From a virus (lineage: Duplodnaviria > Heunggongvirae > Uroviricota > Caudoviricetes), in the IMG/VR virus record IMGVR_UViG_2579778539_000002: DNA of 14,727 nt; one strand, given 5' to 3'. The position numbers and the translations under genes are program-made. The stretch's first letter is position 1. Each line of letters starts with the position of its first letter. Of the stretch, positions 1 to 14,727 are shown in pieces. The notes under the pieces were generated by a model. That model worked only from the letters and a program-made list of their open reading frames with translations. It ran no database searches and was not told where the DNA came from.

Positions 1-237
1 TACCGCAAACAGCTTGCCCTGCCGGATTTCAGTCCGTTGTCACAGGACAGACTCGCCATTCAGTTGATCCGCGAACGCGGTGCACTGGATGACATCCGGG
101 CGGGACGCATTGAGCGCGCCATTTCACGCTGTCGCAATATCTGGGCGTCCCTGCCGGGTGCCGGTTACGGTCAGCGTGAGCATTCACTGGAAAAACTGGT
201 CACCGTCTGGCGTACCGCCGGCGGCGTACCGGCTTAA
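1..237 (+). CDS. K: Endolysin (P2 gpK-like lysozyme), C-terminal fragment; 5' end lies outside the window
   Basis: Frame 1 is open from base 1 to TAA at 235-237. The C-terminal residues ...LPGAGYGQREHSLEKL... resemble the P2 K endolysin as I recall it. Position directly upstream of lysA fits P2 order. Confidence 0.7.
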   Translation, partial: YRKQLALPDFSPLSQDRLAIQLIRERGALDDIRAGRIERAISRCRNIWASLPGAGYGQREHSLEKLVTVWRTAGGVPA

Positions 238-251
238 ACGGAGTAAACACC

Positions 252-677
252 ATGAAGAAATTATCCCTTTCACTGATGCTGAACGTGTCGCTGGCGCTGA
301 TGCTGGCACTGTCCCTGATTTACCCGCAGAGCGTGGCCGTCAGTTTTGTCGCTGCCTGGGCGATTCTGGCGACGGTTATCTGTGTGGTTGCCGGCGGTGT
401 CGGCGTGTATGCCACTGAGTATGTACTGGAGCGCTACGGGCGGGAGCTGCCGCCGGAATCGCTGGCCGTGAAGATTGTCGCGTCGCTGTTTTTGCAGCTG
501 GTGCCGTGGCGCAGACGGGCGGTGGCTCTGGTAGTGATGGTGGCGACGTTTATCTCGCTGGTCGCTGCCGGGTGGATTTTTACCGCGCTGATTTATCTCG
601 TGGTATCGGTGTTCTTCCGGCTGATACGTACGGCCTGCCGTCAGCGTTTTGAGGGGCGGGAACCATGTCAAAGCTGA
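252..677 (+). CDS. lysA: LysA-like lysis accessory membrane protein (141 aa)
   Basis: ATG at 252 preceded by GGAG. Protein is very hydrophobic with several predicted transmembrane stretches. Length of 141 aa and position after K match P2 lysA. Confidence 0.6.
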   Translation: MKKLSLSLMLNVSLALMLALSLIYPQSVAVSFVAAWAILATVICVVAGGVGVYATEYVLERYGRELPPESLAVKIVASLFLQLVPWRRRAVALVVMVATFISLVAAGWIFTALIYLVVSVFFRLIRTACRQRFEGREPCQS

Positions 678-1090
678 TGATTGTGCTGGTCGTGTTGTTA
701 TCGCTGGCGGTGGCGGGTCTGTTTCTGGCGAAGCATGAAAACGCCCGCCTGCGCGCCTCGCTGGACAGGGCGAATAACGTCGCCAGTGAACAGCAGACGA
801 CCATCACCATGCTGAAAAATCAGCTTCATGTTGCCATCACCAGGGCAGACAAAAACGAGCTGGCGCAGGTGGCACTGCGTCAGGAACTGGAGAACGCCGC
901 GAAGCGTGAAGCACAGCGCGAGAAAACCATCACGAGGTTACTCAATGAAAACGAAGATTTTCGCCGCTGGTACGGCGCTGACCTGCCTGATGCTGTGCGC
1001 CGGTTGCACCAGCGCCCCGCCTGCACCGACGCCAGTGATTGTCCACAACGCCTGCCCGAAAGTGAGCCTTTGCCCGATGCCGGGCAGTGA
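665..1090 (+). CDS. lysB: LysB, Rz-like inner-membrane spanin (141 aa)
   Basis: N-terminal transmembrane segment (LMIVLVVLLSLAVAGLFLA) followed by a charged, probably coiled-coil region. Start overlaps the lysA end. Length matches P2 LysB. Confidence 0.65.
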   Translation: MSKLMIVLVVLLSLAVAGLFLAKHENARLRASLDRANNVASEQQTTITMLKNQLHVAITRADKNELAQVALRQELENAAKREAQREKTITRLLNENEDFRRWYGADLPDAVRRLHQRPACTDASDCPQRLPESEPLPDAGQ

Positions 1091-1235
1091 CCCGCAGAAG
1101 AACGGCGATTTAAGTGCCGATATCCGGCAGCTTGAGAACGCGCTGGCACGCTGTGCCAGCCAGGTAAAAATGATTAAACAGTGTCAGGACGAAAACGATG
1201 CTCAAACCCGACAGCCTGCGCAGGGCGCTGACTGA
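945..1235 (+). CDS. lysC: LysC, Rz1-like outer-membrane lipoprotein spanin (96 aa), starting inside lysB in another frame
   Basis: Internal ATG at 945 within six-frame ORF 828..1235. Signal peptide with lipobox LCAG|C, then a Pro-rich mature region. It runs 145 bp past the lysB stop, the overlapped spanin architecture. Length of 96 aa matches P2 LysC. Confidence 0.65.
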   Translation: MKTKIFAAGTALTCLMLCAGCTSAPPAPTPVIVHNACPKVSLCPMPGSDPQKNGDLSADIRQLENALARCASQVKMIKQCQDENDAQTRQPAQGAD

Positions 1236-1665
1236 TGCCGTCACGGTGCTGAAAACCAGTCCTGAGATGCTGCGGATATTCGTGGATAACGGGAGTATTG
1301 CCTCCACACTGGCGACGTCGCTGTCATTCGAAAAGCGTTACACGCTCAATGTCATTGTGACCGACTTTACCGGTGATTTTGATCTGCTCATTGTGCCGGT
1401 GCTGGCGTGGCTGCGGGAAAATCAGCCCGACATCATGACCACCGACGAAGGTCAGAAAAAGGGCTTCACGTTTTATGCAGACATCAACAATGACAGCAGC
1501 TTTGATATCAGCATCAGCCTGATGCTGACCGAGCGCACGCTGGTCAGTGAGGTGGACGGCGCGCTGCATGTGAAGAATATCCCGGAACCTCCGCCGCCGG
1601 AGCCGGTCACCCACCCGATGGAGCTTTATATCAATGGCGAACTGGTGAGTAAGTGGGATGAATGA
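1198..1665 (+). CDS. R: Tail completion protein gpR (155 aa)
   Basis: Length and position match P2 gpR. Start overlaps the lysC end and the stop overlaps the S start (ATGAATGA). Confidence 0.75.
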   Translation: MLKPDSLRRALTDAVTVLKTSPEMLRIFVDNGSIASTLATSLSFEKRYTLNVIVTDFTGDFDLLIVPVLAWLRENQPDIMTTDEGQKKGFTFYADINNDSSFDISISLMLTERTLVSEVDGALHVKNIPEPPPPEPVTHPMELYINGELVSKWDE

Positions 1666-2110
1666 GTTTAAGCGTTTTGAAGACAGGCTGACCGGACTTA
1701 TTGAGTCGCTGTCACCGTCAGGGCGTCGGCGACTGAGCGCCGAACTGGCGAAACGTCTGCGTCAGAGTCAGCAGCGTCGGGTGATGGCACAGAAAGCCCC
1801 GGACGGCACACCCTACGCACCACGCCAGCAGCAGAGCGCCAGAAAAAAGACCGGTCGCGTTAAGCGAAAAATGTTTGCGAAACTTATCACCAGTCGTTTT
1901 TTGCATATCCGCGCCAGCCCGGAACAGGCATCAATGGAGTTTTACGGCGGGAAGTCACCGAAAATCGCCAGCGTGCATCAGTTCGGTCTGTCGGAAGAAA
2001 ACCGAAAAGACGGTAAGAAAATTGATTATCCGGCGCGTCCTCTGCTCGGCTTTACCAGTGAGGATGTGCAGATGATTGAAGAGATTATCCTGGCTCACCT
2101 CGACCGTTAG
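1658..2110 (+). CDS. S: Tail completion protein gpS (150 aa)
   Basis: Length and position match P2 gpS. Translationally coupled to R. Confidence 0.75.
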   Translation: MNEFKRFEDRLTGLIESLSPSGRRRLSAELAKRLRQSQQRRVMAQKAPDGTPYAPRQQQSARKKTGRVKRKMFAKLITSRFLHIRASPEQASMEFYGGKSPKIASVHQFGLSEENRKDGKKIDYPARPLLGFTSEDVQMIEEIILAHLDR

Positions 2111-2142
2111 TTGTGCCATTCCTGACACCTCATCGTCACATT

Positions 2143-2164
2143 GCCGCCGGTATGACCCGGCGGC
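2143..2164 (+). other. GC-rich inverted repeat (8-bp stem GCCGCCGG/CCGGCGGC, 6-nt loop) in the S-V intergenic region
   Basis: Read directly from the sequence. No U-tract follows, so it is not a canonical intrinsic terminator. Function unknown. Confidence 0.4.
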
Positions 2165-2176
2165 ATCCTTCCCGTT

Positions 2177-2812
2177 ATGAACACTCTCGCAAATATTCAG
2201 GAACTCGCGCGCGCACTGCGCAACATGATTCGCACCGGCCTTGTCGTCGAAACCGACCTTAACGCCGGTCGCTGCCGTGTGCAGACCGGCGGCATGTGCA
2301 CCGACTGGCTTCAGTGGCTGACCTGTCGTGCCGGGCGTTCGCGCACATGGTGGGCACCTTCCGTGGGAGAGCAGGTGCTGATTCTGGCCGTGGGCGGTGA
2401 ACTCGACACTGCGTTCGTTCTGCCGGGGATTTATTCCGGCGATAACCCCGCGCCGTCGGCGTCGGCGGATGCCCTGCATATCCGTTTCCCTGACGGGGCG
2501 GTGATTGAGTATGAACCTGAAACCAGTGCACTCACGGTAAGCGGAATTAAAACGGCCAGCGTGACGGCTTCTGATTCTGTTACTGCCACGGTGCCGGTGG
2601 TCATGGTGAAAGCATCAACCCGCGTCACCCTGGACACACCGGAGGTGGTCTGCACCAACAGGCTGATTACCGGCACGCTGGAAGTGCAGAAGGGCGGGAC
2701 GATGCGCGGCAACATTGAACACACCGGCGGTGAACTTTCATCAAACGGTAAAGTACTGCATACCCATAAACACCCCGGCGACAGCGGCGGCAAAACCGGG
2801 AGTCCTCTATGA
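2177..2812 (+). CDS. V: Baseplate spike/assembly protein gpV (211 aa)
   Basis: Length matches P2 gpV and the N-terminus resembles it as I recall. First gene after the S-V gap. Confidence 0.8.
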   Translation: MNTLANIQELARALRNMIRTGLVVETDLNAGRCRVQTGGMCTDWLQWLTCRAGRSRTWWAPSVGEQVLILAVGGELDTAFVLPGIYSGDNPAPSASADALHIRFPDGAVIEYEPETSALTVSGIKTASVTASDSVTATVPVVMVKASTRVTLDTPEVVCTNRLITGTLEVQKGGTMRGNIEHTGGELSSNGKVLHTHKHPGDSGGKTGSPL

Positions 2813-3156
2813 CAGCGCGTTATCTCGGAATGAATCGCAGTGATGGCCTGACTGTCACTGACCTTGAGCATATCAGCCAGAGTATCGGCGATATCCTGCG
2901 CACACCGGTCGGCTCACGGGTGATGCGTCGTGATTACGGCTCGTTGCTGGCGTCAATGATTGACCAGCCGCAGACCCCGGCGCTTGAGTTGCAGATTAAG
3001 GTCGCCTGTTACATGGCCGTACTGAAATGGGAACCCCGCGTCACCCTGTCATCCGTCACCACGGCGCGCAGTTTTGACGGGCGAATGACGGTCACGTTAA
3101 CCGGTCAGCACAACGACACCGGCCAGCCACTTTCGTTAACCATCCCTGTGAGTTGA
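2809..3156 (+). CDS. W: Baseplate wedge protein gpW (gp25/GPW family, 115 aa)
   Basis: Length matches P2 gpW. Start overlaps the V stop (ATGA). Synteny V-W-J-I. Confidence 0.8.
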   Translation: MTARYLGMNRSDGLTVTDLEHISQSIGDILRTPVGSRVMRRDYGSLLASMIDQPQTPALELQIKVACYMAVLKWEPRVTLSSVTTARSFDGRMTVTLTGQHNDTGQPLSLTIPVS

Positions 3157-3160
3157 AACC

Positions 3161-4069
3161 ATGCCGATTATCGACCTGAACCAGCTACCCGCACCGGATG
3201 TGGTCGAGGAGCTGGACTTTGAAACCATTCTTGCCGAACGCAAGGCGACACTGATTTCCCTTTACCCGGAAGACCAGCAGGAGGCGGTTGCCCGTACCCT
3301 GACGCTGGAATCCGAGCCTCTCGTCAAACTGCTGGAGGAAAATGCTTATCGTGAGCTTATCTGGCGTCAGCGTGTGAATGAGGCCGCACGGGCGGTAATG
3401 CTGGCCTGTGCCGCCGGTAATGACCTTGATGTGATTGGTGCCAATTACAACACCACGCGCCTGATTATCACCCCGGCAGATGATTCGACTATCCCGCCGA
3501 CACCGGCAGTGATGGAGTCTGACACCGATTATCGTCTGCGTATTCAGCAGGCGTTTGAGGGCTTAAGCGTCGCCGGGTCGGTGGGAGCCTATCAGTATCA
3601 TGGTCGCAGTGCCGACGGGCGTGTCGCGGATATCTCTGTCACCAGTCCGTCTCCGGCCTGCGTCACCATCTCTGTGCTGTCACGTGAAAATAACGGTGTC
3701 GCATCCGAAGACCTGCTGGCCGTGGTGCGTAACGCCCTTAATGGCGAGGACGTCAGGCCGGTGGCCGACCGCGTGACCGTGCAGTCTGCCGCCATCGTTG
3801 AATACCAGATAAACGCCACGCTGTATCTTTACCCTGGTCCCGAAAGCGAACCCATTCGCGCTGCCGCCGTGAAAAAACTGGAAGCGTATATCACGGCACA
3901 GCACCGGCTGGGGCGCGACATCCGTCTGTCTGCCATTTATGCCGCTTTGCATGTGGAAGGCGTGCAGCGTGTCGAACTGACTGCACCTCTGGCTGACATC
4001 GTGCTCAACAATACGCAGGCGTCTTTCTGTACTGAATACCGCGTCGTGACCGGAGGCTCGGATGAGTGA
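3161..4069 (+). CDS. J: Baseplate protein gpJ (302 aa)
   Basis: Length matches P2 gpJ. Synteny. Confidence 0.8.
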   Translation: MPIIDLNQLPAPDVVEELDFETILAERKATLISLYPEDQQEAVARTLTLESEPLVKLLEENAYRELIWRQRVNEAARAVMLACAAGNDLDVIGANYNTTRLIITPADDSTIPPTPAVMESDTDYRLRIQQAFEGLSVAGSVGAYQYHGRSADGRVADISVTSPSPACVTISVLSRENNGVASEDLLAVVRNALNGEDVRPVADRVTVQSAAIVEYQINATLYLYPGPESEPIRAAAVKKLEAYITAQHRLGRDIRLSAIYAALHVEGVQRVELTAPLADIVLNNTQASFCTEYRVVTGGSDE

Positions 4070-4673
4070 TTCGCGACTGCTGCCGACCGGCTCATCACCG
4101 CTTGAAGTCGCCGCCGCAAAAGCCTGTGCGGAAATTGAAAAAACGCCGGTCAGTATTCGTGAGCTGTGGAACCCGGATACCTGTCCGGCAAATCTGCTGC
4201 CGTGGCTGGCGTGGTCATTTTCGGTCGACAGGTGGGATGATAAATGGCCGGAAGCGACCAAACGCGCTGTTATCCGCGATGCGTATTTCATTCACTGCCA
4301 TAAGGGCACTATTGGTGCGATTCGCCGTGTGGTGGAGCCGCTCGGCTATCTGATTGAGGTGAGGGAGTGGTGGCAACTCAACGAGGAGCCGGGGACGTTC
4401 CGTATCGTTGTTGGCGTGCTTGAGCAGGGTATTACCGAGGAAATGTATCAGGAGCTGGAGCGCCTCGTTGCTGATGCAAAACCGGCAAGCCGCCATCTGA
4501 CGGGACTGGCTATCAGTTTAAGTACAACCGGCAACATTTTTGCCGGTGCGGGATGCTATCACGGCGACGCCCTGACGGTTTATCCCTACACCCCGGAGGC
4601 CATTATTGTCGGAGGGGATTATTTCCCGGCCTCGGCCATTCATTTAATTGATAACCTGAGAGTAAACGCATGA
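4062..4673 (+). CDS. I: Baseplate protein gpI (203 aa)
   Basis: Position between J and H; start overlaps the J stop. Longer than the ~176 aa I recall for P2 gpI (unverified). Confidence 0.7.
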   Translation: MSDSRLLPTGSSPLEVAAAKACAEIEKTPVSIRELWNPDTCPANLLPWLAWSFSVDRWDDKWPEATKRAVIRDAYFIHCHKGTIGAIRRVVEPLGYLIEVREWWQLNEEPGTFRIVVGVLEQGITEEMYQELERLVADAKPASRHLTGLAISLSTTGNIFAGAGCYHGDALTVYPYTPEAIIVGGDYFPASAIHLIDNLRVNA

Positions 4674-5992
4674 CAGTGAAATACTACGCCATTCTGACTA
4701 ATCAGGGCGCAGCACGGCTGGCTAACGCGACGATGCTCGGCAGTAAGCTGAATCTGACGCAAATGGCCGTTGGTGATGCGAATGGTGTCTTGCCGACACC
4801 AGACCCGGCACAGACAAAACTGATTAACCAGAAACGCATCGCGCCGCTGAATCTTCTGAGTGTTGACCCGAACAACCAGAGCCAGATTATTGCGGAGCAA
4901 ATCATCCCTGAGAACGAGGGCGGATTCTGGATCCGTGAGATTGGGCTTTATGATGATGAAGGCGTACTCATTGCGGTGGCGAACTGCCCGGAAACGTACA
5001 AACCGCAGTTGCAGGAAGGCAGTGGTCGTACCCAGACTATCCGCATGATTCTGGTTGTCACGAATACCGAAGCTATCACGCTGAAAATCGACCCGTCGGT
5101 GGTACTGGCGACCCGTAAATACGTGGATGATGAAGTCCTGGAATTAAGGCTGTATGTGGATGACCAGATGAGAAACCACATTGCCGCACAGGATCCTCAT
5201 ACACAGTATGCGCAGAAACATAATCCGACATTTACCGGAGAACCAAAAGCGCCGACGCCTGCCGCAGGAAATAACACCACGCGGATTGCGACCACTGCGT
5301 TTGTTCAGGCCGCTATTACCGCTCTGATTAACGGTGCGCCAGCCACGCTGGACACACTGAAAGAAATTGCCGCAGCCATTAACAATGACCCGAAATTCAG
5401 CACCACCATTAACAATGCGCTGTCAGGTAAGCAGCCACTGGATGAGACGCTGACTCATTTGAGTGGAAAGGATGTAGCTGGTCTTCTCGCATACCTTGGT
5501 TTGGGAGAAGGCTCTGCATTACCGGTTGGTGTGCCTGTTCCGTGGCCTTCAGCCACTCCGCCAACAGGCTGGCTGAAATGCAATGGTGCGGCTTTTTCTG
5601 CTGAAGAATACCCGGAACTGGCAAAGGCTTACCCGACCAATAAATTGCCTGATTTACGTGGTGAGTTTATTCGTGGCTGGGATGATGAACGTGGTGTGGA
5701 TAGTGGGCGAACTCTGCTTTCATCGCAAGGAGATGCTATTCGAAACATTACTGGCGGTTTTGGTCAGTTGCGCGTAAACAGCGAAATTAATGCAATTGTC
5801 GATGTTCAAAGTGTGAGTGGGGCTTTTTACGGAGGTACCTCAGTCCGGAATAACATCAATGTGTCTATGACATACGCTAATGACCGAAAAATCCGACAAG
5901 ATGTTCACTTCTCGGCGGCAAATGTTGTTCCAACAGCAAATGAAAATCGTCCACGTAACATCGCCTTTAATTATATTGTGAGGGCTGCATGA
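4670..5992 (+). CDS. H: Tail fibre protein H (440 aa): constant N-terminal part (aa 1 to ~280) fused to the currently expressed variable C-terminal part, with a recombination site inside the gene
   Basis: N-terminus resembles the P2 H / Mu S fibre N-terminal domain. C-terminal part carries a phage tail-collar-like motif (WLKCNGAAFSAEEYPELAKAYP...LPDLRGEFIRGWDDERGVD). Start overlaps the I stop (ATGA). The 26-bp hix-like site at 5484..5509 is in frame. Confidence 0.85.
   Translation: MTVKYYAILTNQGAARLANATMLGSKLNLTQMAVGDANGVLPTPDPAQTKLINQKRIAPLNLLSVDPNNQSQIIAEQIIPENEGGFWIREIGLYDDEGVLIAVANCPETYKPQLQEGSGRTQTIRMILVVTNTEAITLKIDPSVVLATRKYVDDEVLELRLYVDDQMRNHIAAQDPHTQYAQKHNPTFTGEPKAPTPAAGNNTTRIATTAFVQAAITALINGAPATLDTLKEIAAAINNDPKFSTTINNALSGKQPLDETLTHLSGKDVAGLLAYLGLGEGSALPVGVPVPWPSATPPTGWLKCNGAAFSAEEYPELAKAYPTNKLPDLRGEFIRGWDDERGVDSGRTLLSSQGDAIRNITGGFGQLRVNSEINAIVDVQSVSGAFYGGTSVRNNINVSMTYANDRKIRQDVHFSAANVVPTANENRPRNIAFNYIVRAA
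5484..5509. repeat. Left recombination site, hix/gix-like 26-bp element (TTCTCGCATACC-TT-GGTTTGGGAGAA), inside H
   Basis: The 15 bp at 5496..5510 (TTGGTTTGGGAGAAG) are a perfect inverted repeat of 7389..7403. Overall form is two 12-bp half-sites around a central dinucleotide, similar to hixL as recalled (TTCTTGAAAACC-AA-GGTTTTTGATAA). Confidence 0.6.
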
Positions 5993-6594
5993 TGAATAAA
6001 GCTGTATTAAATAGTGAACTCATTGCCATAAAAGCGGGAGACATTATCATTTATAATTATGATGGTGAAACGCGTGAATATATTTCTACATCAACTGAAT
6101 GTCTCGCTGTCGGCGTCGGTATCCCGGCATGTTCTTGTTTAGATGCACCAGTTACACATAAAGCTGGTTATGCAATCTGCCGTTCTGCAGATTTTAACTC
6201 ATGGGAATATGTGCCAGACCATCGCGGTGAAATCATCTATAGCACCGAAACAGGAGAATCGAAAGAAATCACAGCTCCGGGTGATTACCCTGAAAATACA
6301 ACCACTATCGCCCCGTTAACGCCATATGATAAATGGGATGGTGAGAAATGGGTGACGGATACTGAGGCACAGCATAGTGCCGCAGTAGACGCGGCAGAAG
6401 CACAGCGCCAGTCACTGATTGATGCAGCAATGGCTTCCATTAGTCTGATTCAGCTGAAATTACAGGCCGGACGGAAGTTGACGCAGGCAGAAACAACCAG
6501 ACTTAACGCTGTGCTGGATTACATTGACGCGGTGACGGCAACAGATACCAGCACCGCGCCGGATGTCATCTGGCCTGAACTGCCGGAGGCGTAG
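5989..6594 (+). CDS. G: Tail fibre assembly protein G (201 aa), partner of the currently expressed H variable part
   Basis: Start overlaps the H stop (ATGATGA). C-terminus has the tail fibre assembly motif (LDYIDAV...DTSTAPDVIWPELP). Longer than the 175 aa I recall for P2 G. Confidence 0.75.
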   Translation: MMNKAVLNSELIAIKAGDIIIYNYDGETREYISTSTECLAVGVGIPACSCLDAPVTHKAGYAICRSADFNSWEYVPDHRGEIIYSTETGESKEITAPGDYPENTTTIAPLTPYDKWDGEKWVTDTEAQHSAAVDAAEAQRQSLIDAAMASISLIQLKLQAGRKLTQAETTRLNAVLDYIDAVTATDTSTAPDVIWPELPEA

Positions 6595-7018
6595 GCCATT
6601 CAATATCTGGCGCACCGGAAGTATCGACCAGCACCAGTGCGTCCAGATAATCCAGCCACAAATTATATTGCGCCAGTTCGTCATCTTTCAGACGACCAAT
6701 AGCGGCTTTACCGGGCCATTGCTTACTGTTCATGTATTCGTTGGCCTGGTTAATTAGTAGCTGTCTTTCTGATTCAGTAATTTCAATAAGCTCTTCATGC
6801 GTGGGTGGAGGAATATCTGCCCACGCAGGCATCCCATCATCTCCGGCAATACGGATTTTTCCTTGTGGCGGTTCAGCCATAAACTCACTGATAATATTTT
6901 GATTCACCTCCTTTGCATCTGATAAATCCCATCCCTCTGATTTATATTTATCAATCATATCCACAGGGAAAAAAGCATTATGCCTTGCGCTATAAACATA
7001 TTCGTTCATATAAATCAC
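6566..7018 (-). CDS. Alternative tail fibre assembly protein (G', 150 aa) in the silent orientation
   Basis: C-terminus (LWLDYLDALVLVDTSGAPDIEWPTPP) parallels the G C-terminal motif. Sits directly downstream of the alternative fibre segment on the minus strand. Its 3' end overlaps the G 3' end by 29 bp. Confidence 0.65.
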   Translation of the reverse strand: MIYMNEYVYSARHNAFFPVDMIDKYKSEGWDLSDAKEVNQNIISEFMAEPPQGKIRIAGDDGMPAWADIPPPTHEELIEITESERQLLINQANEYMNSKQWPGKAAIGRLKDDELAQYNLWLDYLDALVLVDTSGAPDIEWPTPPAVQAR

Positions 7019-7029
7019 CCTGAATAAAA

Positions 7030-7443
7030 TTACTCACCAACAGCCCACCAACTGTAATTCATCGATACTGTGGAACTGGTTGATGCAGTTCTGTAAGCGG
7101 AATTAAAACCGGTTAATGTTGGGCCTTCTGCAGTCATCATGAACCCTCGCCCAGCACCTAAAGGCGCACCACCATCACCAGAATGAGTAAGCATGGCGCA
7201 GTCCACTTTTTTAGGAAAAGGGATGCTGAATGTAATTCTCATTGTTTGCGTCGATAATGTCGGCGTAACCGCACCACGACCATATTGCAGGATTTTCCCG
7301 TTGGGTAATTTCATCCATCCATCACCACTGGCAAAAGAGGCCATGTCCGGTATCTGATTTTCCCCTGTCCCCACATCCCGTTTTGCCGCTTCTCCCAAAC
7401 CAACGTTTATGAAAATGCAGAGATAACGGGCAACTGGCATCAT
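7030..7443 (-). CDS. Alternative tail fibre variable C-terminal segment (H'v); no promoter of its own expected, would fuse to the H constant part after inversion
   Basis: Minus-strand ORF reads through the right recombination site. Residues GLGE at aa 15-18 are encoded by the inverted repeat in the same frame as GLGE (aa 277-280) of H. The ATG at 7441-7443 lies outside the segment and may not be a real start. Confidence 0.6.
   Translation of the reverse strand: MMPVARYLCIFINVGLGEAAKRDVGTGENQIPDMASFASGDGWMKLPNGKILQYGRGAVTPTLSTQTMRITFSIPFPKKVDCAMLTHSGDGGAPLGAGRGFMMTAEGPTLTGFNSAYRTASTSSTVSMNYSWWAVGE
7390..7415. repeat. Right recombination site, hix/gix-like 26-bp element (TTCTCCCAAACC-AA-CGTTTATGAAAA)
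   Basis: Contains the reverse complement of the 15-bp core in H. Central dinucleotide AA is the complement of TT in the left site, as inversion requires. Lies 55 bp upstream of the invertase start. Confidence 0.6.
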
Positions 7444-7470
7444 CTCCGGTTTTTATTCAGGGGGATGCTC

Positions 7471-8064
7471 ATGCTTATTGGCTATGTACGCGTGTCAACA
7501 AATGACCAGAACACGGAATTGCAGCGTAACGCGCTGGAGTGCGCAGGATGCGAGCGGATTTTTGAGGATAAAATCAGCGGCACGAAGTCCGACCGACCGG
7601 GACTGAAAAAACTGCTCAGAACATTATCAGCAGGTGACACTCTGGTAGTCTGGAAGCTGGACCGGCTGGGGCGTAGTATGCGGCATCTGGTCATTCTGGT
7701 TGAGGAGCTGCGCGAACGCGGCGTTAATTTTCGCAGCCTGACAGATGCTATTGATACCAGCACGCCGATGGGGCGTTTTTTCTTTCATGTGATGGGTGCC
7801 CTGGCTGAAATGGAGCGAGAACTCATTGTCGAGCGGACACGCGCTGGACTGGAAGCGGCCAGAGCCAAAGGGCGTATTGGTGGCAGACGTCCGAAGCTCA
7901 CCGCGAGTGAGTGGGAGCAGGCCGGGCGGTTGCTGGCTGCGGGGGAATCTCGTCAACGTGTGGCGCTGATTTTTGATATTGGCCTGTCCACGCTCTATAA
8001 AAAATTCCCCTCATCAGCGACAAAGAATAAATTGTGTCATCCCTTAGCCAACCGGGACAAATAG
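7471..8064 (+). CDS. Serine site-specific DNA invertase, Gin/Cin/Pin/Hin family (197 aa from ATG 7471; in-frame ATG at 7465 would add 2 aa)
   Basis: N-terminus MLIGYVRVSTNDQNTELQRNAL carries the catalytic-serine motif (Ser9) typical of small serine recombinases and is near-identical to Gin/Pin as recalled. C-terminal HTH-like region (GLSTLYKKFP). AGGGGG Shine-Dalgarno 6 nt before 7471. Confidence 0.9.
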   Translation: MLIGYVRVSTNDQNTELQRNALECAGCERIFEDKISGTKSDRPGLKKLLRTLSAGDTLVVWKLDRLGRSMRHLVILVEELRERGVNFRSLTDAIDTSTPMGRFFFHVMGALAEMERELIVERTRAGLEAARAKGRIGGRRPKLTASEWEQAGRLLAAGESRQRVALIFDIGLSTLYKKFPSSATKNKLCHPLANRDK

Positions 8065-8123
8065 CCTGACATCTCCGGCACAACTGAAAATACCACTCAC
8101 CCATTAACCACGGAGTTAAACGG

Positions 8124-9314
8124 ATGAGTGACTATCATCACGGCGTGCAGGTGCTGGAGATTAACGACGGCACCCGCGTCATTTCCACCGTATCCACTGC
8201 CATTGTCGGCATGGTCTGCACGGCCAGCGATGCGGATGCGGAAACCTTCCCCCTCAATAAACCTGTGCTGATTACCAATGTGCAGAGCGCAATTGCAAAG
8301 GCCGGTAAAAAAGGCACGCTGGCAGCATCGTTGCAGGCCATCGCTGACCAGTCAAAACCGGTCACCGTTGTCGTGCGTGTGGAAGACGGCACCGGCGACG
8401 ACGAAGAAACGAAACTCGCGCAGACCGTTTCCAATATCATCGGCACCACCGACGAAAACGGTCAGTACACCGGACTGAAAGCCCTGCTGGCGGCGGAGTC
8501 GGTTACCGGTGTTAAACCGCGTATTCTTGGTGTGCCGGGACTGGACACCAAAGAGGTGGCGGTTGCACTGGCATCCGTCTGTCAGAAGCTGCGCGCTTTC
8601 GGGTATATCAGCGCATGGGGCTGTAAAACCATTTCCGAGGTGAAAGCCTACCGCCAGAATTTCAGCCAGCGTGAGCTGATGGTCATCTGGCCGGATTTCC
8701 TCGCATGGGATACGGTCACCAGTACCACCGCCACCGCGTATGCCACCGCCCGTGCGCTGGGTCTGCGTGCCAAAATCGACCAGGAGCAGGGCTGGCATAA
8801 AACGCTGTCCAACGTCGGGGTGAACGGTGTTACCGGCATCAGCGCATCTGTATTCTGGGATTTGCAGGAGTCCGGCACCGATGCTGACCTGCTTAACGAG
8901 TCAGGCGTCACAACGCTGATTCGCCGTGACGGTTTCCGCTTCTGGGGTAACCGTACCTGCTCTGATGACCCGCTGTTCCTCTTTGAAAACTACACCCGCA
9001 CCGCGCAGGTGCTGGCCGACACGATGGCTGAGGCGCATATGTGGGCGGTGGACAAGCCTATCACCGCAACGCTGATTCGCGACATCGTTGACGGCATCAA
9101 TGCCAAATTCCGTGAGCTGAAAACAAACGGTTATATCGTGGATGCGACCTGCTGGTTCAGCGAAGAATCCAACGATGCGGAAACCCTTAAGGCCGGAAAA
9201 CTGTATATCGACTACGACTATACCCCGGTGCCTCCTCTTGAAAACCTGACCCTGCGCCAGCGTATTACCGATAAATACCTGGCAAATCTGGTCACCTCGG
9301 TTAACAGCAATTAA
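8124..9314 (+). CDS. FI: Contractile tail sheath protein FI (396 aa)
   Basis: Length matches P2 FI. GGAG RBS. Followed by the tube gene. Confidence 0.9.
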   Translation: MSDYHHGVQVLEINDGTRVISTVSTAIVGMVCTASDADAETFPLNKPVLITNVQSAIAKAGKKGTLAASLQAIADQSKPVTVVVRVEDGTGDDEETKLAQTVSNIIGTTDENGQYTGLKALLAAESVTGVKPRILGVPGLDTKEVAVALASVCQKLRAFGYISAWGCKTISEVKAYRQNFSQRELMVIWPDFLAWDTVTSTTATAYATARALGLRAKIDQEQGWHKTLSNVGVNGVTGISASVFWDLQESGTDADLLNESGVTTLIRRDGFRFWGNRTCSDDPLFLFENYTRTAQVLADTMAEAHMWAVDKPITATLIRDIVDGINAKFRELKTNGYIVDATCWFSEESNDAETLKAGKLYIDYDYTPVPPLENLTLRQRITDKYLANLVTSVNSN

Positions 9315-9326
9315 GGAGCCTGACCG

Positions 9327-9845
9327 ATGGCAATGCCGCGCAAACTCAAGTTAATGAACGTCTTTCTGAACGGCTACAGCTATCAGGGCGTTGCAAAGTC
9401 CGTCACGCTGCCAAAACTGACCCGTAAGCTCGAAAACTATCGCGGTGCGGGGATGAACGGCAGCGCACCGGTAGACCTCGGCCTTGATGACGATGCGCTG
9501 TCAATGGAGTGGTCGCTCGGGGGCTTCCCGGATTCGGTTATCTGGGAGCTTTACGCCGCAACCGGCGTGGATGCCGTGCCGATTCGTTTTGCAGGCTCTT
9601 ACCAGCGCGACGATACCGGCGAAACGGTGGCCGTCGAAGTGGTCATGCGTGGACGTCAGAAAGAAATCGACACCGGCGAGGGCAAACAGGGAGAAGACAC
9701 CGAGTCGAAAATCTCCGTGGTCTGCACCTATTTCCGGCTGACGATGGACGGTAAGGAGCTGGTCGAAATTGACACCATCAACATGATTGAAAAGGTGAAC
9801 GGCGTCGACCGGCTGGAGCAACACCGCCGCAATATCGGCCTGTGA
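9327..9845 (+). CDS. FII: Tail tube protein FII (172 aa)
   Basis: Length matches P2 FII. AAGGAG RBS at 9313-9318. Synteny. Confidence 0.85.
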   Translation: MAMPRKLKLMNVFLNGYSYQGVAKSVTLPKLTRKLENYRGAGMNGSAPVDLGLDDDALSMEWSLGGFPDSVIWELYAATGVDAVPIRFAGSYQRDDTGETVAVEVVMRGRQKEIDTGEGKQGEDTESKISVVCTYFRLTMDGKELVEIDTINMIEKVNGVDRLEQHRRNIGL

Positions 9846-9850
9846 TTTTC

Positions 9851-9871
9851 ATCCGGTCAGCCTGGCTGGCC
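9851..9871 (+). other. GC-rich hairpin (CCGGTCAGCC / GGCTGGCCGG arms) immediately after the FII stop
   Basis: Near-perfect inverted repeat read from the sequence. Only TT follows, so it is at best a weak or partial terminator or an RNA-stability element. Confidence 0.35.
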
Positions 9872-9901
9872 GGTTAACCCTGATTCAGAAGTGAGAAAAC
9901 C

Positions 9902-10177
9902 ATGAACAAAGAAAATGTCATTACCCTGGACAATCCGGTCAAACGTGGTGAGCAGGTTATCGAACAGGTCACGCTGATGAAACCCAATGCCGGGACGCTA
10001 CGCGGTGTCAGTCTGGCTGCGGTTGCAAACTCCGAAGTCGATGCACTGATTAAGGTGCTGCCGCGCATGACGGCACCGATGCTGACCGAGCAGGAAGTCG
10101 CCGCGCTGGAACTGCCTGACCTTGTGGCGCTGGCCGGTAAGGTGGTCGGTTTTTTGTCGCCGAACTCGGTGCAGTGA
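9902..10177 (+). CDS. E: Tail assembly chaperone gpE (91 aa)
   Basis: Length matches P2 gpE. Lies between tube and tape measure, the conserved chaperone position. Confidence 0.75.
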   Translation: MNKENVITLDNPVKRGEQVIEQVTLMKPNAGTLRGVSLAAVANSEVDALIKVLPRMTAPMLTEQEVAALELPDLVALAGKVVGFLSPNSVQ

Positions 10178-10329
10178 CGTTTCCAAAAAATCTCTCGGTC
10201 GATGACCTGATGGCGGATGTGGCAGTGATATTTCACTGGCCGCCATCAGAACTGTATCCCATGAGCCTGACCGAACTCATCACATGGCGCGAAAAGGCGC
10301 TCCGGCGAAGCGGAAACACGAATGAGTAA
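9902..10329 (+). CDS. E+E' fusion made by programmed -1 frameshift (about 143 aa)
   Basis: Heptamer T_TTT_TTG at 10150..10156 is in the correct phase of the E frame. The -1 frame is open from there to TAA at 10327-10329, overlapping the T start. Confidence 0.6.
10150..10156 (+). promoter_or_regulatory. -1 ribosomal frameshift slippery heptamer T_TTT_TTG for E/E'
   Basis: X_XXY_YYZ pattern in the E zero frame, 7 codons before the E stop. Conserved tail chaperone frameshift arrangement. Confidence 0.6.
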
Positions 10330-12769
10330 CAATGTAAAATTACAGGTATTGCTCAGGGCTGTTGACCAGGCATCCCGCCCGTTTAAATCCATCCGCACAG
10401 CGAGTAAGTCGCTGTCGGGGGATATCCGGGAAACACAAAAATCACTGCGCGAGCTGAACGGTCACGCATCCCGTATTGAGGGATTCCGCAAGACCAGTGC
10501 ACAGCTCGCCGTGACTGGTCATGCACTTGAAAAGGCACGGCAGGAGGCCGAAGCCCTTGCCACACAGTTTAAAAACACCGAACGTCCGACCCGTGCTCAG
10601 GCGAAAGTGCTGGAATCAGCAAAGCGAGCGGCGGAGGACTTACAGGCGAAATATAACCGCCTGACGGATTCCGTTAAACGCCAGCAGCGGGAACTGGCCG
10701 CTGTGGGAATTAATACCCGCAATCTTGCACATGATGAGCAGGGGCTGAAAAACCGTATCAGTGAAACCACCGCACAGCTTAATCGTCAGCGCGACGCACT
10801 GGCGCGTGTCAGTGCGCAACAGGCAAAACTTAACGCAGTAAAACAGCGTTATCAGGCCGGAAAGGAACTGGCCGGAAATATGGCCTCAGTGGGCGCTGCC
10901 GGTGTGGGGATTGCGGCGGCGGGAACGATGGCCGGAGTTAAGCTGCTGATGCCAGGTTATGAGTTTGCGCAGAAAAACTCAGAATTGCAGGCCGTGCTAG
11001 GAGTGGCAAAAGACTCCGCCGAAATGACCGCACTCCGCAAGCAGGCGCGCCAGCTCGGCGACAATACCGCAGCCTCGGCGGATGATGCGGCCGGTGCGCA
11101 GATTATTATTGCGAAAGCCGGTGGGGATGTTGATGCCATTCAGGCGGCAACGCCGGTCACGCTGAACATGGCGCTGGCGAACCGCCGCACGATGGAAGAA
11201 AACGCCGCCCTGCTGATGGGGATGAAATCCGCCTTTCAGCTTTCAAACGATAAGGTCGCTCATATCGGGGATGTTCTCTCCATGACGATGAACAAAACCG
11301 CCGCCGATTTTGACGGCATGAGCGATGCGCTGACCTATGCCGCACCTGTGGCAAAAAATGCCGGTGTCAGCATTGAAGAAACCGCCGCAATGGTCGGGGC
11401 GCTGCATGATGCAAAAATCACAGGCTCAATGGCGGGGACGGGAAGCCGTGCCGTGTTAAGCCGCCTGCAGGCACCGACGGGAAAAGCATGGGATGCACTC
11501 AAAGAGCTTGGAGTGAAAACCTCAGACAGCAAGGGAAACACCCGGCCAATATTTACCATTCTGAAAGAAATGCAGGCCAGTTTTGAGAAAAACCGGCTCG
11601 GTACTGCCCAGCAGGCTGAATACATGAAAACTATTTTCGGGGAGGAGGCCAGCTCAGCCGCCGCCGTGCTGATGACTGCCGCCTCAACCGGAAAGCTGGA
11701 CAAACTGACCGCTGCGTTTAAAGCCTCAGACGGGAAGACCGCCGAGCTGGTAAATATCATGCAGGACAACCTAGGCGGTGACTTTAAAGAGTTTCAGTCC
11801 GCTTATGAGGCAGTGGGGACTGACCTGTTTGACCAGCAGGAAGGCGCGCTGCGTAAGCTCACGCAGACGGCCACAAAGTATGTGTTAAAACTCGACGGCT
11901 GGATCAAGAAAAACAAATCACTGGCGTCAACCATCGGCCTCATTGTCGGTGGTGCACTGGCGCTTATTGGCATCATCGGTGCCATTGGTCTTGTCGCCTG
12001 GCCGGTTATCACCGGCATCAATGCCATCATCGCGGCAGCAGGCGCAATGGGGGCAGTCTTCACGACGGTTGGCAGTGCTGTTATGACCGCCATCGGGGCT
12101 ATTAGCTGGCCGGTTGTGGCCGTGGTGGCCGCAATTGTCGCCGGGGCGTTGCTTATCCGTAAATACTGGGAGCCTGTCAGCGCATTCTTTGGCGGTGTGG
12201 TTGAAGGGCTGAAAGTGGCATTTGCGCCGGTGGGGGAACTGTTCACGCCACTTAAGCCGGTGTTTGACTGGCTGGGTGAAAAGTTACAGGCCGCGTGGCA
12301 GTGGTTTAAAAACCTGATTGCCCCGGTCAAAGCCACTCAGGACACCCTGAACCGTTGCCGTGACACGGGGGTCATGTTCGGGCAGGCACTGGCTGACGCG
12401 CTGATGCTGCCGCTTAATGCGTTCAACAAACTGCGCAGTGGTATTGACTGGGTACTGGAAAAACTCGGTGTTATCAACAAAGAGTCAGACACACTTGACC
12501 AGACCGCCGCCAGAACTCAAGCCGCCACGTATGGCAGCGGTGGTTATATTCCGGCGACCAGCTCTTATGCAGGCTATCAGGCTTATCAGCCGGTCACGGC
12601 ACCGGCTGGCCGCTCTTATGTGGACCAGAGTAAAAACGAATATCACATCAGCCTGACGGGTGGCACTGCGCCGGGGACACAGCTTGACCGCCAGTTACAG
12701 GATGCGCTCGAAAAATACGAGCGGGATAAACGTGCGCGCGCTCGTGCCAGCATGATGCATGACGGTTAA
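10322..12769 (+). CDS. T: Tail tape measure protein T (815 aa)
   Basis: Length matches P2 gpT. Long coiled-coil-like N-terminal part, Gly/Ala-rich hydrophobic segment near aa 540-600, position after E/E'. Confidence 0.9.
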   Translation: MSNNVKLQVLLRAVDQASRPFKSIRTASKSLSGDIRETQKSLRELNGHASRIEGFRKTSAQLAVTGHALEKARQEAEALATQFKNTERPTRAQAKVLESAKRAAEDLQAKYNRLTDSVKRQQRELAAVGINTRNLAHDEQGLKNRISETTAQLNRQRDALARVSAQQAKLNAVKQRYQAGKELAGNMASVGAAGVGIAAAGTMAGVKLLMPGYEFAQKNSELQAVLGVAKDSAEMTALRKQARQLGDNTAASADDAAGAQIIIAKAGGDVDAIQAATPVTLNMALANRRTMEENAALLMGMKSAFQLSNDKVAHIGDVLSMTMNKTAADFDGMSDALTYAAPVAKNAGVSIEETAAMVGALHDAKITGSMAGTGSRAVLSRLQAPTGKAWDALKELGVKTSDSKGNTRPIFTILKEMQASFEKNRLGTAQQAEYMKTIFGEEASSAAAVLMTAASTGKLDKLTAAFKASDGKTAELVNIMQDNLGGDFKEFQSAYEAVGTDLFDQQEGALRKLTQTATKYVLKLDGWIKKNKSLASTIGLIVGGALALIGIIGAIGLVAWPVITGINAIIAAAGAMGAVFTTVGSAVMTAIGAISWPVVAVVAAIVAGALLIRKYWEPVSAFFGGVVEGLKVAFAPVGELFTPLKPVFDWLGEKLQAAWQWFKNLIAPVKATQDTLNRCRDTGVMFGQALADALMLPLNAFNKLRSGIDWVLEKLGVINKESDTLDQTAARTQAATYGSGGYIPATSSYAGYQAYQPVTAPAGRSYVDQSKNEYHISLTGGTAPGTQLDRQLQDALEKYERDKRARARASMMHDG

Positions 12770-12783
12770 GGAGGTGACGAAAA

Positions 12784-13263
12784 ATGATGCTCGCGTTAGG
12801 TATGTTTGTTTTTATGCGCCAGACGCTGCCACACCAGACCATGCAGCGTGAATCAGATTATCGCTGGCCGTCAAATTCCCGTATCGGTAAACGGGACGCT
12901 TTTCAGTTTCTCGGTGTGGGTGAGGAAAACATCACGCTGGCCGGTGTGCTTTATCCCGAACTGACCGGCGGCAAGCTGACGATGACCACGCTCAGGCTGA
13001 TGGCAGAGGAGGGGCGGGCGTGGCCGTTGCTGGATGGCACCGGCATGATTTACGGCATGTATGTCATCAGCAGGGTGAGTGAAACAGGGAGTATTTTCTT
13101 TGCAGACGGCACACCCCGGAAAATTGATTTTACGCTGTCACTCACCCGCGTTGATGAATCACTGGCCGCGCTTTATGGCGATATCGGTAAACAGGCGGAA
13201 TCGCTCATCGGTAAGGCCGGCAGTATGGCGACCAGATTCACAGGTATGACGGGGGCGGGATAA
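12784..13263 (+). CDS. U: Tail protein gpU (159 aa)
   Basis: Length matches P2 gpU. AGGAGG RBS at 12769-12774. Synteny. Confidence 0.8.
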   Translation: MMLALGMFVFMRQTLPHQTMQRESDYRWPSNSRIGKRDAFQFLGVGEENITLAGVLYPELTGGKLTMTTLRLMAEEGRAWPLLDGTGMIYGMYVISRVSETGSIFFADGTPRKIDFTLSLTRVDESLAALYGDIGKQAESLIGKAGSMATRFTGMTGAG

Positions 13264-14426
13264 TGCTGGATGCGCTGACATTTGATGCAGGCAGTACGCT
13301 GACGCCGGATTACATGCTGATGCTCGACAGCAGGGATATTACCGGCAATATCAGCGACCGTCTGATGAGCATGACCCTGACGGATAACCGGGGCTTTGAG
13401 GCTGACCAGCTTGATATTGAACTGAACGATGCCGACGGGCAGGTCGGGCTGCCGGTTCGTGGCGCTGTCCTGACGGTGTATATCGGCTGGAAAGGTTTTG
13501 CCCTGGTATGCAAAGGGAAATTTACCGTTGATGAGGTTGAACACCGGGGCGCACCGGATGTAGTCACCATCCGCGCCCGGAGTGCAGATTTTCGCGGGAC
13601 GCTCAATTCCCGCCGGGAAGGCTCCTGGCATGACACCACGCTCGGTGCGATTGTTAAGGCGATAGCCACCCGTAACAGGCTGGAAGCCAGTGTCGCTCCG
13701 TCACTGGCCGGAATAAAAATTCCACACATCGACCAGTCGCAGGAGTCTGATGCGAAATTCCTGACCCGTCTTGCAGAACGCAACGGCGGTGAGGTGTCGG
13801 TAAAAATGGGAAAACTGTTGTTTCTCAAAGCGGGGCAGGGAGTGACGGCCAGCGGTAAAAAAATCCCGCAGGTCACCATAACCCGCAGCGACGGCGACCG
13901 CCATCATTTTGCGATTGCTGACCGTGGAGCCTACACCGGTGTAACGGCAAAATGGCTACACACTAAAGACCCGAAGCCGCAAAAGCAGAAGGTAAAACTG
14001 AAACGCAAAAAGAAAGAGAAACACCTGCGCGCACTGGAGCACCCGAAAGCGAAACCGGTCAGGCAGAAGAAAGCGCCAAAAGTACCGGAAGCGCGCGAAG
14101 GTGAATACATGGCCGGTGAGGCTGACAACGTTTTTGCCCTGACCACGGTATATGCCACGAAAGCGCAGGCCATGCGCGCCGCTCAGGCGAAGTGGGATAA
14201 ACTGCAACGGGGTGTGGCGGAGTTCTCCATCAGCCTGGCTACCGGTCGGGCAGATATTTACACGGAAACACCGGTCAAAGTGTCAGGCTTTAAGCGTGTC
14301 ATAGACGAGCAGGACTGGACAATCACTAAGGTGACACATTTTCTGAATAATAGCGGCTTCACGACGTCCTTAGAGCTTGAGGTAAGGCTTTCTGATGTGG
14401 AGTACGAAACCGAAGATGATGAGTGA
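13263..14426 (+). CDS. D: Tail protein gpD (387 aa)
   Basis: Length matches P2 gpD. Start overlaps the U stop (TAATG). Lys-rich linker in the middle. Confidence 0.8.
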   Translation: MLDALTFDAGSTLTPDYMLMLDSRDITGNISDRLMSMTLTDNRGFEADQLDIELNDADGQVGLPVRGAVLTVYIGWKGFALVCKGKFTVDEVEHRGAPDVVTIRARSADFRGTLNSRREGSWHDTTLGAIVKAIATRNRLEASVAPSLAGIKIPHIDQSQESDAKFLTRLAERNGGEVSVKMGKLLFLKAGQGVTASGKKIPQVTITRSDGDRHHFAIADRGAYTGVTAKWLHTKDPKPQKQKVKLKRKKKEKHLRALEHPKAKPVRQKKAPKVPEAREGEYMAGEADNVFALTTVYATKAQAMRAAQAKWDKLQRGVAEFSISLATGRADIYTETPVKVSGFKRVIDEQDWTITKVTHFLNNSGFTTSLELEVRLSDVEYETEDDE

Positions 14427-14445
14427 TGTGTTTTATTTTATCTGT

Positions 14446-14474
14446 TTGTTTTATAAGGATAAATTAACTAAAAT
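14446..14474 (+). promoter_or_regulatory. Candidate sigma70 promoter for ogr (-35 TTGTTT, 17-bp spacer, -10 TAAAAT)
   Basis: Read by eye in the AT-rich D-ogr gap. ogr is known to have its own promoter in P2. Not verified. Confidence 0.25.
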
Positions 14475-14508
14475 GGCAACATCAACAAAACCGGAAGAGG
14501 TGCTCGCA

Positions 14509-14727
14509 ATGTTTCATTGTCCTTTATGCCAGCATGCCGCACATGCGCGTACAAGTCGCTATATCACTGACACGACAAAAGAGCGTTATCACCAGTGTCA
14601 GAACGTGAATTGCAGCGCCACATTCATCACTTATGAGTCGGTACAGCGATATATCGTGAAGCCGGGAGAAGTCCACGCCGTAAGGCCGCACCCGTTGCCA
14701 TCAGGGCAGCAAATTATGTGGATGTAA
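14509..14727 (+). CDS. ogr: Ogr, zinc-finger late gene transcription activator (72 aa)
   Basis: MFHCPLCQHAAHARTSRYITDTTKERYHQCQNVNCSATF... carries the Cys4 motif (CxxC...CxxxxC) and matches P2 Ogr as I recall it. GAGG RBS 8 nt upstream. Last gene before the expected att/int region. Confidence 0.85.
   Translation: MFHCPLCQHAAHARTSRYITDTTKERYHQCQNVNCSATFITYESVQRYIVKPGEVHAVRPHPLPSGQQIMWM

Follow-up and report, generated by a model that had tools for sequence, protein, structure and literature searches.

The interval between the tail fibre assembly gene G and the tail sheath gene FI, which holds fun(Z) in phage P2, very probably contains a site-specific inversion switch of Pin/Gin type, acting on the tail fibre, in an E. 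coli prophage that is P2-like (Peduovirus) by sequence. The window (the whole stretch analysed, 14,727 nucleotides, IMG/VR record IMGVR_UViG_2579778539_000002) is a P2-like late region with the gene order K, R, S, V-W-J-I-H-G, FI-FII-E-T-U-D to ogr, and its late-cluster genes of P2 type are all intact. Nucleotide alignment gave 94-98% identity to P2 outside positions 4499-8043 (across 1-2112, 2177-4498 and 8044-14727), and the fun(Z) slot consists here of a second assembly gene, an alternative fibre C-terminus and a serine invertase (Table 1). The first-pass annotation had filled the interval with these same three elements, and Pfam and ORF assignments agree with it. The span that it had given, 5989-8123, needs refinement, as it includes G itself and the invertible unit starts at 5497, inside H.

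Table 1. Features of the inversion module and its P2-type borders (positions in the window)
Feature	Position	Strand	Evidence or remarks
H constant N-terminal part, aa 1 to ~276, common to both isoforms	4670..5496	+	Pfam Phage_tail_fib 2.6e-62
Left 26-bp crossover site, inside H	5484..5509	.	TTCTCGCATACC-TT-GGTTTGGGAGAA; top inverted repeat I1
Current H tip	5497..5992	+	Pfam Collar 3.1e-15 at aa 287-334
G, tail fibre assembly chaperone for current tip (TfaE-like)	5989..6594	+	Caudo_TAP 1.8e-32
G', alternative tail fibre assembly chaperone (TfaP-like)	6566..7018	-	Caudo_TAP 2.1e-30
Silent alternative fibre C-terminus (tip H'c)	7030..7402	-	Pfam Gp53-like_C 2.7e-13
Right 26-bp crossover site	7390..7415	.	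reverse complement TTTTCATAAACG-TT-GGTTTGGGAGAA; identical to e14 site beside pinE
Serine DNA invertase, Pin/Gin type	7471..8064	+	Resolvase 8.3e-53 (aa 5-137) and HTH_7 1.1e-12
Candidate recombinational enhancer, two Fis-type 15-mers (predicted)	7493..7555	.	invertase gene 5' end
Late promoter pF region, P2 backbone	8027..8123	+	P2 alignment; overlaps invertase ORF 3' end
FI, tail sheath, right-hand slot anchor	8124..9314	+	Phage_sheath_1 and sheath C-terminal domains; 98% identical to P2

In the present orientation H encodes a fibre of 440 aa, of which the tip begins with the collar domain and is 60% identical to StfE of e14 over 170 aa. The following gene, G, is 92.5% identical to TfaE of e14, and its counterpart in E. 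coli 65COLEC is named tfaE in RefSeq; G', for which RefSeq places the start at 7009, is 53% identical to e14 TfaP. These two Caudo_TAP genes lie on opposite strands, one chaperone for each tip, and are convergent with an overlap of 29 bp. No NCBIfam match was found for the chaperones or the tip. The mechanically predicted ORF of the alternative tip extends beyond the segment (7030-7443, minus strand), and when the segment was flipped in silico this tip joined H in frame to give a fibre of 399 aa. The two isoforms have their N-terminal part in common and end in alternative tips, as in the G segment of Mu, the C segment of P1 and the P segment of e14. The silent tip is routinely mis-annotated as a standalone gp53-like protein.

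The invertible segment comprises positions 5497-7402 (~1.9 kb), with its left end inside H and not at G. The crossover sites that bound it are identical at 21 of 26 positions and inverted relative to each other, with the same 2-bp core (TT on one site, AA on the plus strand of the other), an arrangement characteristic of the Hin/Gin/Cin/Pin switches. This pair is not a product of chance: an 18-nt half-site pattern has two matches in the window, against 0.03 expected. A search of the window with the same pattern found these two sites only, and a multi-segment shufflon, as in one EPEC P2-like prophage, was rejected for want of a third crossover site.

The exact flipped isomer exists in nature. 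The same prophage is present in E. coli O157:H16 98-3133, where window positions 5496-7406 are inverted at 99.8% identity between collinear flanks; the breakpoint falls at the left crossover site, the constant part of H is unchanged, the 399-aa fibre ORF is intact, and a genome search found the predicted recombinant junction at 100% identity. This difference in orientation between genomes, as distinct from observation within one culture, indicates indirectly that the segment inverts at the two sites. Inversion in EPEC P2-like prophages has been demonstrated experimentally (PMC4272514). The fibre gene of the flipped isomer, though intact, is wrongly labelled a pseudogene.

The invertase gene lies outside the invertible segment and is transcribed away from it; an alternative ATG is present at 7465. 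Its product is a small serine recombinase (~190 aa) with an N-terminal catalytic domain, in which the motif YVRVST is present, and a C-terminal helix-turn-helix, and it is 87% identical to PinE and 80% identical to Gin. Its best PDB matches are the Gin crystal structures 3UJ3 and 4M6F (E ~1e-94), and NCBIfam returned sub-threshold serine-recombinase matches only. Unlike Pin and Gin, the protein has a C-terminal tail of 16 residues that does not align to either; this tail is encoded in part by promoter sequence of the backbone and is probably neutral in effect. The two candidate Fis sites (7493-7507 and 7541-7555) have centres 48 bp apart, compared with 47 bp between the two Fis sites of the hin enhancer (PMC3798978). 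The second matches GNNYRNNWNNYRNNC, and the first is one position off the degenerate consensus. With 27 matches in the window against 34.8 expected, this consensus shows no enrichment and so carries no weight by itself; the candidate enhancer, at which Fis would bind, rests on the location of both 15-mers within blocks conserved with pinE and gin.

From these features a mechanism may be proposed. The invertase would bind the two inverted 26-bp sites and, with host Fis presumably bound to the candidate enhancer near the start of its gene, would flip the segment between them. In the current orientation H ends in the collar-domain tip and is followed by the TfaE-like chaperone; after inversion, the same H N-terminus is joined in frame to the gp53-like tip, followed by the TfaP-like chaperone. 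Since inversion yields two fibre isoforms, the particles released by a lysogen population would differ in their receptor-binding tips, and this may serve as host-range bet-hedging.

To judge by its sequence, the module is homologous to the P segment of e14 in E. coli K-12 and is built like the G segment of Mu. The e14 P segment, served by PinE, has the same succession of a constant fibre part, a tip and chaperone, an opposite-strand chaperone and tip, and an invertase; the overlap of the convergent chaperones is of the same length in both, and the right crossover sites are identical. The tip that is expressed here is the counterpart of the silent tip of e14 in K-12. The gp53-like tip has no detectable BLASTP similarity to YcfK beyond the site-spanning leader. 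Furthermore, e14 is a cryptic element, whereas the present module lies within a late cluster of P2 type, and the late region looks intact. The G segment of Mu with Gin (and likewise the C segment of P1 with Cin) shares the architecture and class of mechanism, and the crossover half-sites and enhancer region are conserved with those of Mu, but the fibre and chaperone sequences differ and the backbone here is P2-like. The position within a P2-like genome is that of Fels-2 of Salmonella LT2, which has the order I-H-G-G'-H'-invertase-FI (read from its GenBank record), although Fels-2 is a Felsduovirus, not a Peduovirus, and its tips differ. The same order in the same position is found in the E. 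coli Peduovirus genomes KC618326 ("P2" of O157:H43 T22), pro483 and S164, which differ from the present module allelically in the fibre tips; across 95% of window positions 4000-9400, KC618326 matches at 94.6% identity.

The slot itself is that of the fun(Z) locus, the second P2 hotspot, and ends on the right at the same point, immediately before the pF activator site, but P2 has a 1.6-kb lysogenic-conversion gene and the V-operon terminator there. Downstream of G, a scan for promoters and terminators gave no strong terminator, and for the invertase it gave no convincing sigma-70 promoter. On its right side the variable block ends at ~8032-8044, where homology to P2 resumes at the activator site, so that the last codons of the invertase ORF are backbone sequence. 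The counterpart of the annotated activator-binding site of P2 (8027-8055) is identical at 19 of 29 positions, near-identity to P2 extends from 8044 onward, and the transcription start of P2 maps to 8098-8100.

That P2 carries fun(Z) between G and FI, as the first-pass annotation had stated, was confirmed by comparison with P2. Its statement that this position is a variable cargo site often carrying anti-phage systems is also documented: the locus is variable and defence-enriched (Vassallo 2022, PMC9519451; iLund4u 2024 preprint, 10.1101/2024.10.15.618418), and the iLund4u preprint noted invertases in the hotspot; neither Rousset 2022 nor a 2026 NAR paper on the hotspots of P2 and P4 refers to invertases. 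The present interval leaves no space for a defence gene, nor was one detected, in keeping with the earlier observation of no unassigned ORF and no obvious defence gene. Fibre, chaperone and invertase genes account for all of its coding capacity, and non-coding sequence within 5989-8123 is confined to 7019-7029, 7444-7464 and 8065-8123 (91 bp in total). PADLOC profiles (E<=0.1) gave no hit to any of 10 ORFs, namely H, G, G', H'c, the invertase and five overlapping or antisense ORFs, and thus none to the minus-strand ORFs, where a hit would have counted against the first-pass annotation.

Comparison of the interval across relatives found differing contents that do not contradict the ORF labels. 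Among ~1,700 complete E. coli genomes with a P2-type sheath gene, the invertase-FI junction occurs in 550 and the P2-type, fun(Z)-side junction in 166, making the former about three times as common; the left junction is of the type seen here in 340 E. coli genomes and of the flipped type in 75. Other relatives have, in the same slot and with the same right edge, a SMEK-domain protein, hypothetical proteins or decayed inversion modules, such as that of E. coli 23CRST022, which retains only TAP fragments, and that of E. coli strain 1000, in which the invertase is truncated. In a small sample of relatives, no slot was seen to combine an invertase module with a defence gene. Thus, the replacement of Z/fun by an inversion module stands as an observation, but not as an exception: with its frequency in E. 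coli and its presence in Fels-2, the arrangement is already known, common and already annotated.

Apart from an inversion switch for the tail fibre, three other readings of the interval were considered. The module may double as an anti-phage function: the prophage would express one fibre isoform in the lysogen, this isoform would cover an outer-membrane receptor, and other phages could no longer adsorb, so that the hotspot would contain defence cargo after all. The module would then also be a switchable superinfection-exclusion system, and the masked receptor one of porin type, as has been reported for e14 StfE2. According to Kirigo et al. 2025 (PMC12529663), StfE2 arises by inversion of the P segment of e14 and prevents T2 from adsorbing, and the slot is defence-enriched (PMC9519451). 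The similarity of the current tip to StfE and of its chaperone to TfaE also favours this reading, which is nevertheless improbable, given the intact-looking late region, so different from that of the cryptic e14, and the lack of a PADLOC match. In addition, H of P2 belongs to the late V operon, whose promoter depends on Ogr, and a stable lysogen would not be expected to express it.

It is still less probable that inversion has ceased, leaving the second tip and its chaperone as dead cargo. Decayed versions do exist in 23CRST022 and strain 1000, but the present module retains all four ORFs, both crossover sites and the enhancer-region sequence intact, the invertase has its catalytic motif, and the nearly identical flipped isomer exists. 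The mechanical ORF list also contains antisense ORFs of 68-109 aa, and the real cargo might be sought in an unannotated gene that is small or overlaps another, such as the 74-aa ORF at 6460-6684 or an ORF inside the invertase gene on its antisense strand; this is scarcely credible, as all such ORFs lie wholly within well-supported genes, none has a PADLOC match, RefSeq annotates none in near-identical genomes, and so little of the interval is non-coding.

The inversion switch is of little significance beyond correct annotation. For surveys of defence hotspots, it means that about one-third of the G-FI slots of P2 type in E. coli hold a fibre-inversion module rather than defence cargo; superinfection exclusion, if it were true, could explain the invertase modules in this third of the defence-enriched slots. 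The module may also bear on the prediction of host range for P2-like phages and for the P4-type satellites that are packaged in their particles.

The window spans 14.7 kb and corresponds to the late region of a P2-like E. coli prophage (Peduovirus). In BLASTN comparison with P2 (NC_001895), positions 1-2112 match P2 7258-9369 (96% identity), 2177-4498 match P2 10308-12629 (95%), and 8044-14727 match P2 17572-24254, up to ogr (98%); the block 4499-8043, which spans the 3' end of I, H, G and the rest as far as the pF promoter, has no P2 counterpart except a weak 171-bp match in H (5284-5454, 67% identity). The 3' end of I (4499-4673) has diverged from P2, and I encodes 203 amino acids here versus 176 in P2; thus, the block replaced relative to P2 begins within I, upstream of the fibre gene. 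The closest genome is that of E. coli 65COLEC (99.8% identity across 8.8 kb), and phage records sharing the layout include KC618326 ("P2" of O157:H43 T22), pro483, S164 and MET_P1_103_31. Between S and V, P2 has a second variable slot (9370-10307) with a terminator, orf30, which is non-essential, and the activator site of pV. In the window this slot measures only 66 bp (2111-2176) and is empty, its sole remnant being a TGT-N12-type late-promoter-like sequence.

In P2, fun(Z) lies on the minus strand of the G-FI interval, together with a terminator and the activator site of pF, which bears out the placement of Z/fun in the first-pass annotation. That annotation had described the corresponding interval of the window as filled by an alternative fibre segment, an alternative assembly gene and an invertase; the ORFs are as described, and Pfam agrees. 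Only 91 bp within 5989-8123 are non-coding, leaving no unassigned ORF, as had been claimed, and PADLOC profiles (E ≤ 0.1) matched neither the five tabulated genes from H to the invertase nor five overlapping or antisense ORFs. Thus, both the observation and the absence of a defence gene hold; the finding is real and was read correctly.

Genes of the window from H to FI (H, fibre; G', alternative assembly chaperone)
Feature	Position	Strand	Pfam
H (440 aa)	4670-5992	+	Phage_tail_fib, Collar
G	5989-6594	+	Caudo_TAP
G'	6566-7018	-	Caudo_TAP
Alternative tip ORF	7030-7443	-	Gp53-like_C
Invertase	7465/7471-8064	+	Resolvase, HTH_7
FI	8124-9314	+	Tail sheath domains

The highest-scoring inverted repeat in 4600-8200 is 5484-5510/7389-7415. 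It contains two crossover 26-mers, TTCTCGCATACC-TT-GGTTTGGGAGAA and, in reverse complement, TTTTCATAAACG-TT-GGTTTGGGAGAA, which are identical at 21 of 26 positions including the central dinucleotide; the window has exactly two occurrences of the half-site pattern (0.03 expected). These paired inverted sites define an invertible segment, 5497-7402, whose left end falls within H, not at G, and which carries the current tip and G on one strand, with G' and the alternative tip on the other. The invertase gene lies 56 bp to the right of the segment and is transcribed away from it. Exchange at the core in silico produces an in-frame fibre, H', of 399 amino acids, whose sequence passes from ...LAYLGLGE into AAKRDVGTGENQ....

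E. coli O157:H16 98-3133 carries a perfect match (100% identity) to the predicted recombinant junction; there, 5496-7406 is inverted relative to the window (99.8% identity) between collinear flanks, and the 399-aa ORF expected after inversion is intact. In RefSeq, the fibre gene of this locus (L091 2924-4123) is split into a truncated pseudogene and a "gp53-like domain-containing protein" of its own, contrary to the intact fused ORF; the pseudogene call appears to be an annotation artefact that affects invertible fibre genes systematically. Among complete E. coli genomes, the left junction is of the flipped type in 75 and of the as-is type in 340. Inversion has been demonstrated by experiment in P2-like prophages of EPEC (Goldberg 2014, PMC4272514).

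The layout of the module matches the G segment of Mu and the P segment of e14. The invertase shares 87% identity with PinE of e14 and 80% with Gin of Mu, and its best PDB matches are Gin crystal structures (E about 1e-94); the corresponding identities are 92.5% for G with TfaE, 53% for G' with TfaP and 60% for the current tip with StfE. The e14 site beside pinE is identical to the right crossover site. The first ~90 bp of the invertase gene are conserved with pinE and gin and hold two Fis-type 15-mers (7493-7507 and 7541-7555), putative binding sites for Fis, with centres 48 bp apart; the spacing of this candidate pair fits the geometry of the hin enhancer, with two Fis sites 47 bp apart (PMC3798978).

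Several smaller features were noted. The convergent genes G and G' share 29 bp of 3'-terminal sequence (6566-6594), exactly the overlap found for tfaP and tfaE in e14, and a nearby inverted repeat (6513-6530/6639-6656) corresponds to the C-terminal LDYIDA and LDYLDA sequences on opposite strands. Another inverted repeat, of 16 nucleotides (7014-7029/7451-7466), is complementary at 15 of 16 positions. It puts a near-identical leader (TTTTATTCAGGG[T/G]GAT) directly ahead of the G' (minus strand) and invertase (plus strand) start codons, and may be a shared translation-initiation region or mere chance.

At the right boundary of the slot, P2 homology resumes at about 8032-8044, so the invertase ORF extends into backbone sequence. 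The annotated pF activator-binding site of P2 corresponds to window 8027-8055 (19 of 29 positions identical, TGT-N12-CCA arrangement kept) and the P2 transcription start to 8098-8100; over 8027-8064, the invertase ORF reads across the counterpart of the activator-binding site. The last 16 residues of the invertase do not align to Pin or Gin. Backbone promoter sequence encodes the final 6-11 of them, which places the module-backbone joint within the invertase ORF. In E. coli genomes with other cargo, homology to the window also stops at 8032 or 8044 (junction probe query positions 253 or 265).

Of 5,426 complete E. coli genomes, about 1,700 contain the 5' part of FI, 550 the invertase-pF-FI junction, and 166 the P2-type fun(Z)-side junction. 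Other slot contents sampled included a SMEK-domain protein, hypothetical proteins and two decayed inversion modules (L086 5436-5946 and L090 4968-6025), one reduced to two chaperone fragments, and the other retaining the silent tip and chaperone with a truncated invertase, so that the fibre is locked. In a wider sample of 80 species-representative Enterobacterales loci with a P2-type FI, the majority have H and G followed by ~125-130 bp to FI, without cargo. The invertase ends 60-65 bp before FI, as in the window, in Pseudocitrobacter, two species of Siccibacter, and Kluyvera; in Scandinavium and a second Kluyvera species, whose loci are cut at a contig end, its match ends within ~100 bp of FI. 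In two Dickeya species the fibre/invertase module is larger, and a few other loci have other cargo. In D. oryzae (L068, about 3243-10000) and D. undicola (L065), H and FI lie much farther apart (6.8 kb), with the invertase in mid-interval and an additional fibre-like ORF and chaperone downstream, which may be a multi-segment fibre-shuffling module. The order in Fels-2 of Salmonella LT2 is I-H-G-G'-H'-invertase-FI, and according to the iLund4u preprint (10.1101/2024.10.15.618418) the Z/fun hotspot frequently has a DNA invertase; an inversion module in this slot is a frequent arrangement, already annotated and published.

By analogy with StfE2 of e14 (PMC12529663), the fibre might mask a receptor and so act in defence; this is unlikely, since the prophage seems to be intact and H belongs to its late genes. 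A small gene hidden in the slot is likewise improbable, since free space is lacking and HMM matches are absent. That the switch is a frozen relic is also unlikely, its parts being intact and its flipped isomer existing.

Parts, sites, in-frame alternative fusion and an exact natural inversion isomer are established; operation of the switch would follow the Hin/Gin/Pin paradigm. A promoter scan for the invertase found nothing convincing. Invertase dimers on both sites would form a synapse with the enhancer and its bound Fis, and strand exchange would proceed by subunit rotation. Late transcription, which starts at pV and depends on Ogr, would then express whichever tip and chaperone currently face H, and lysates would contain two particle types differing in receptor specificity.
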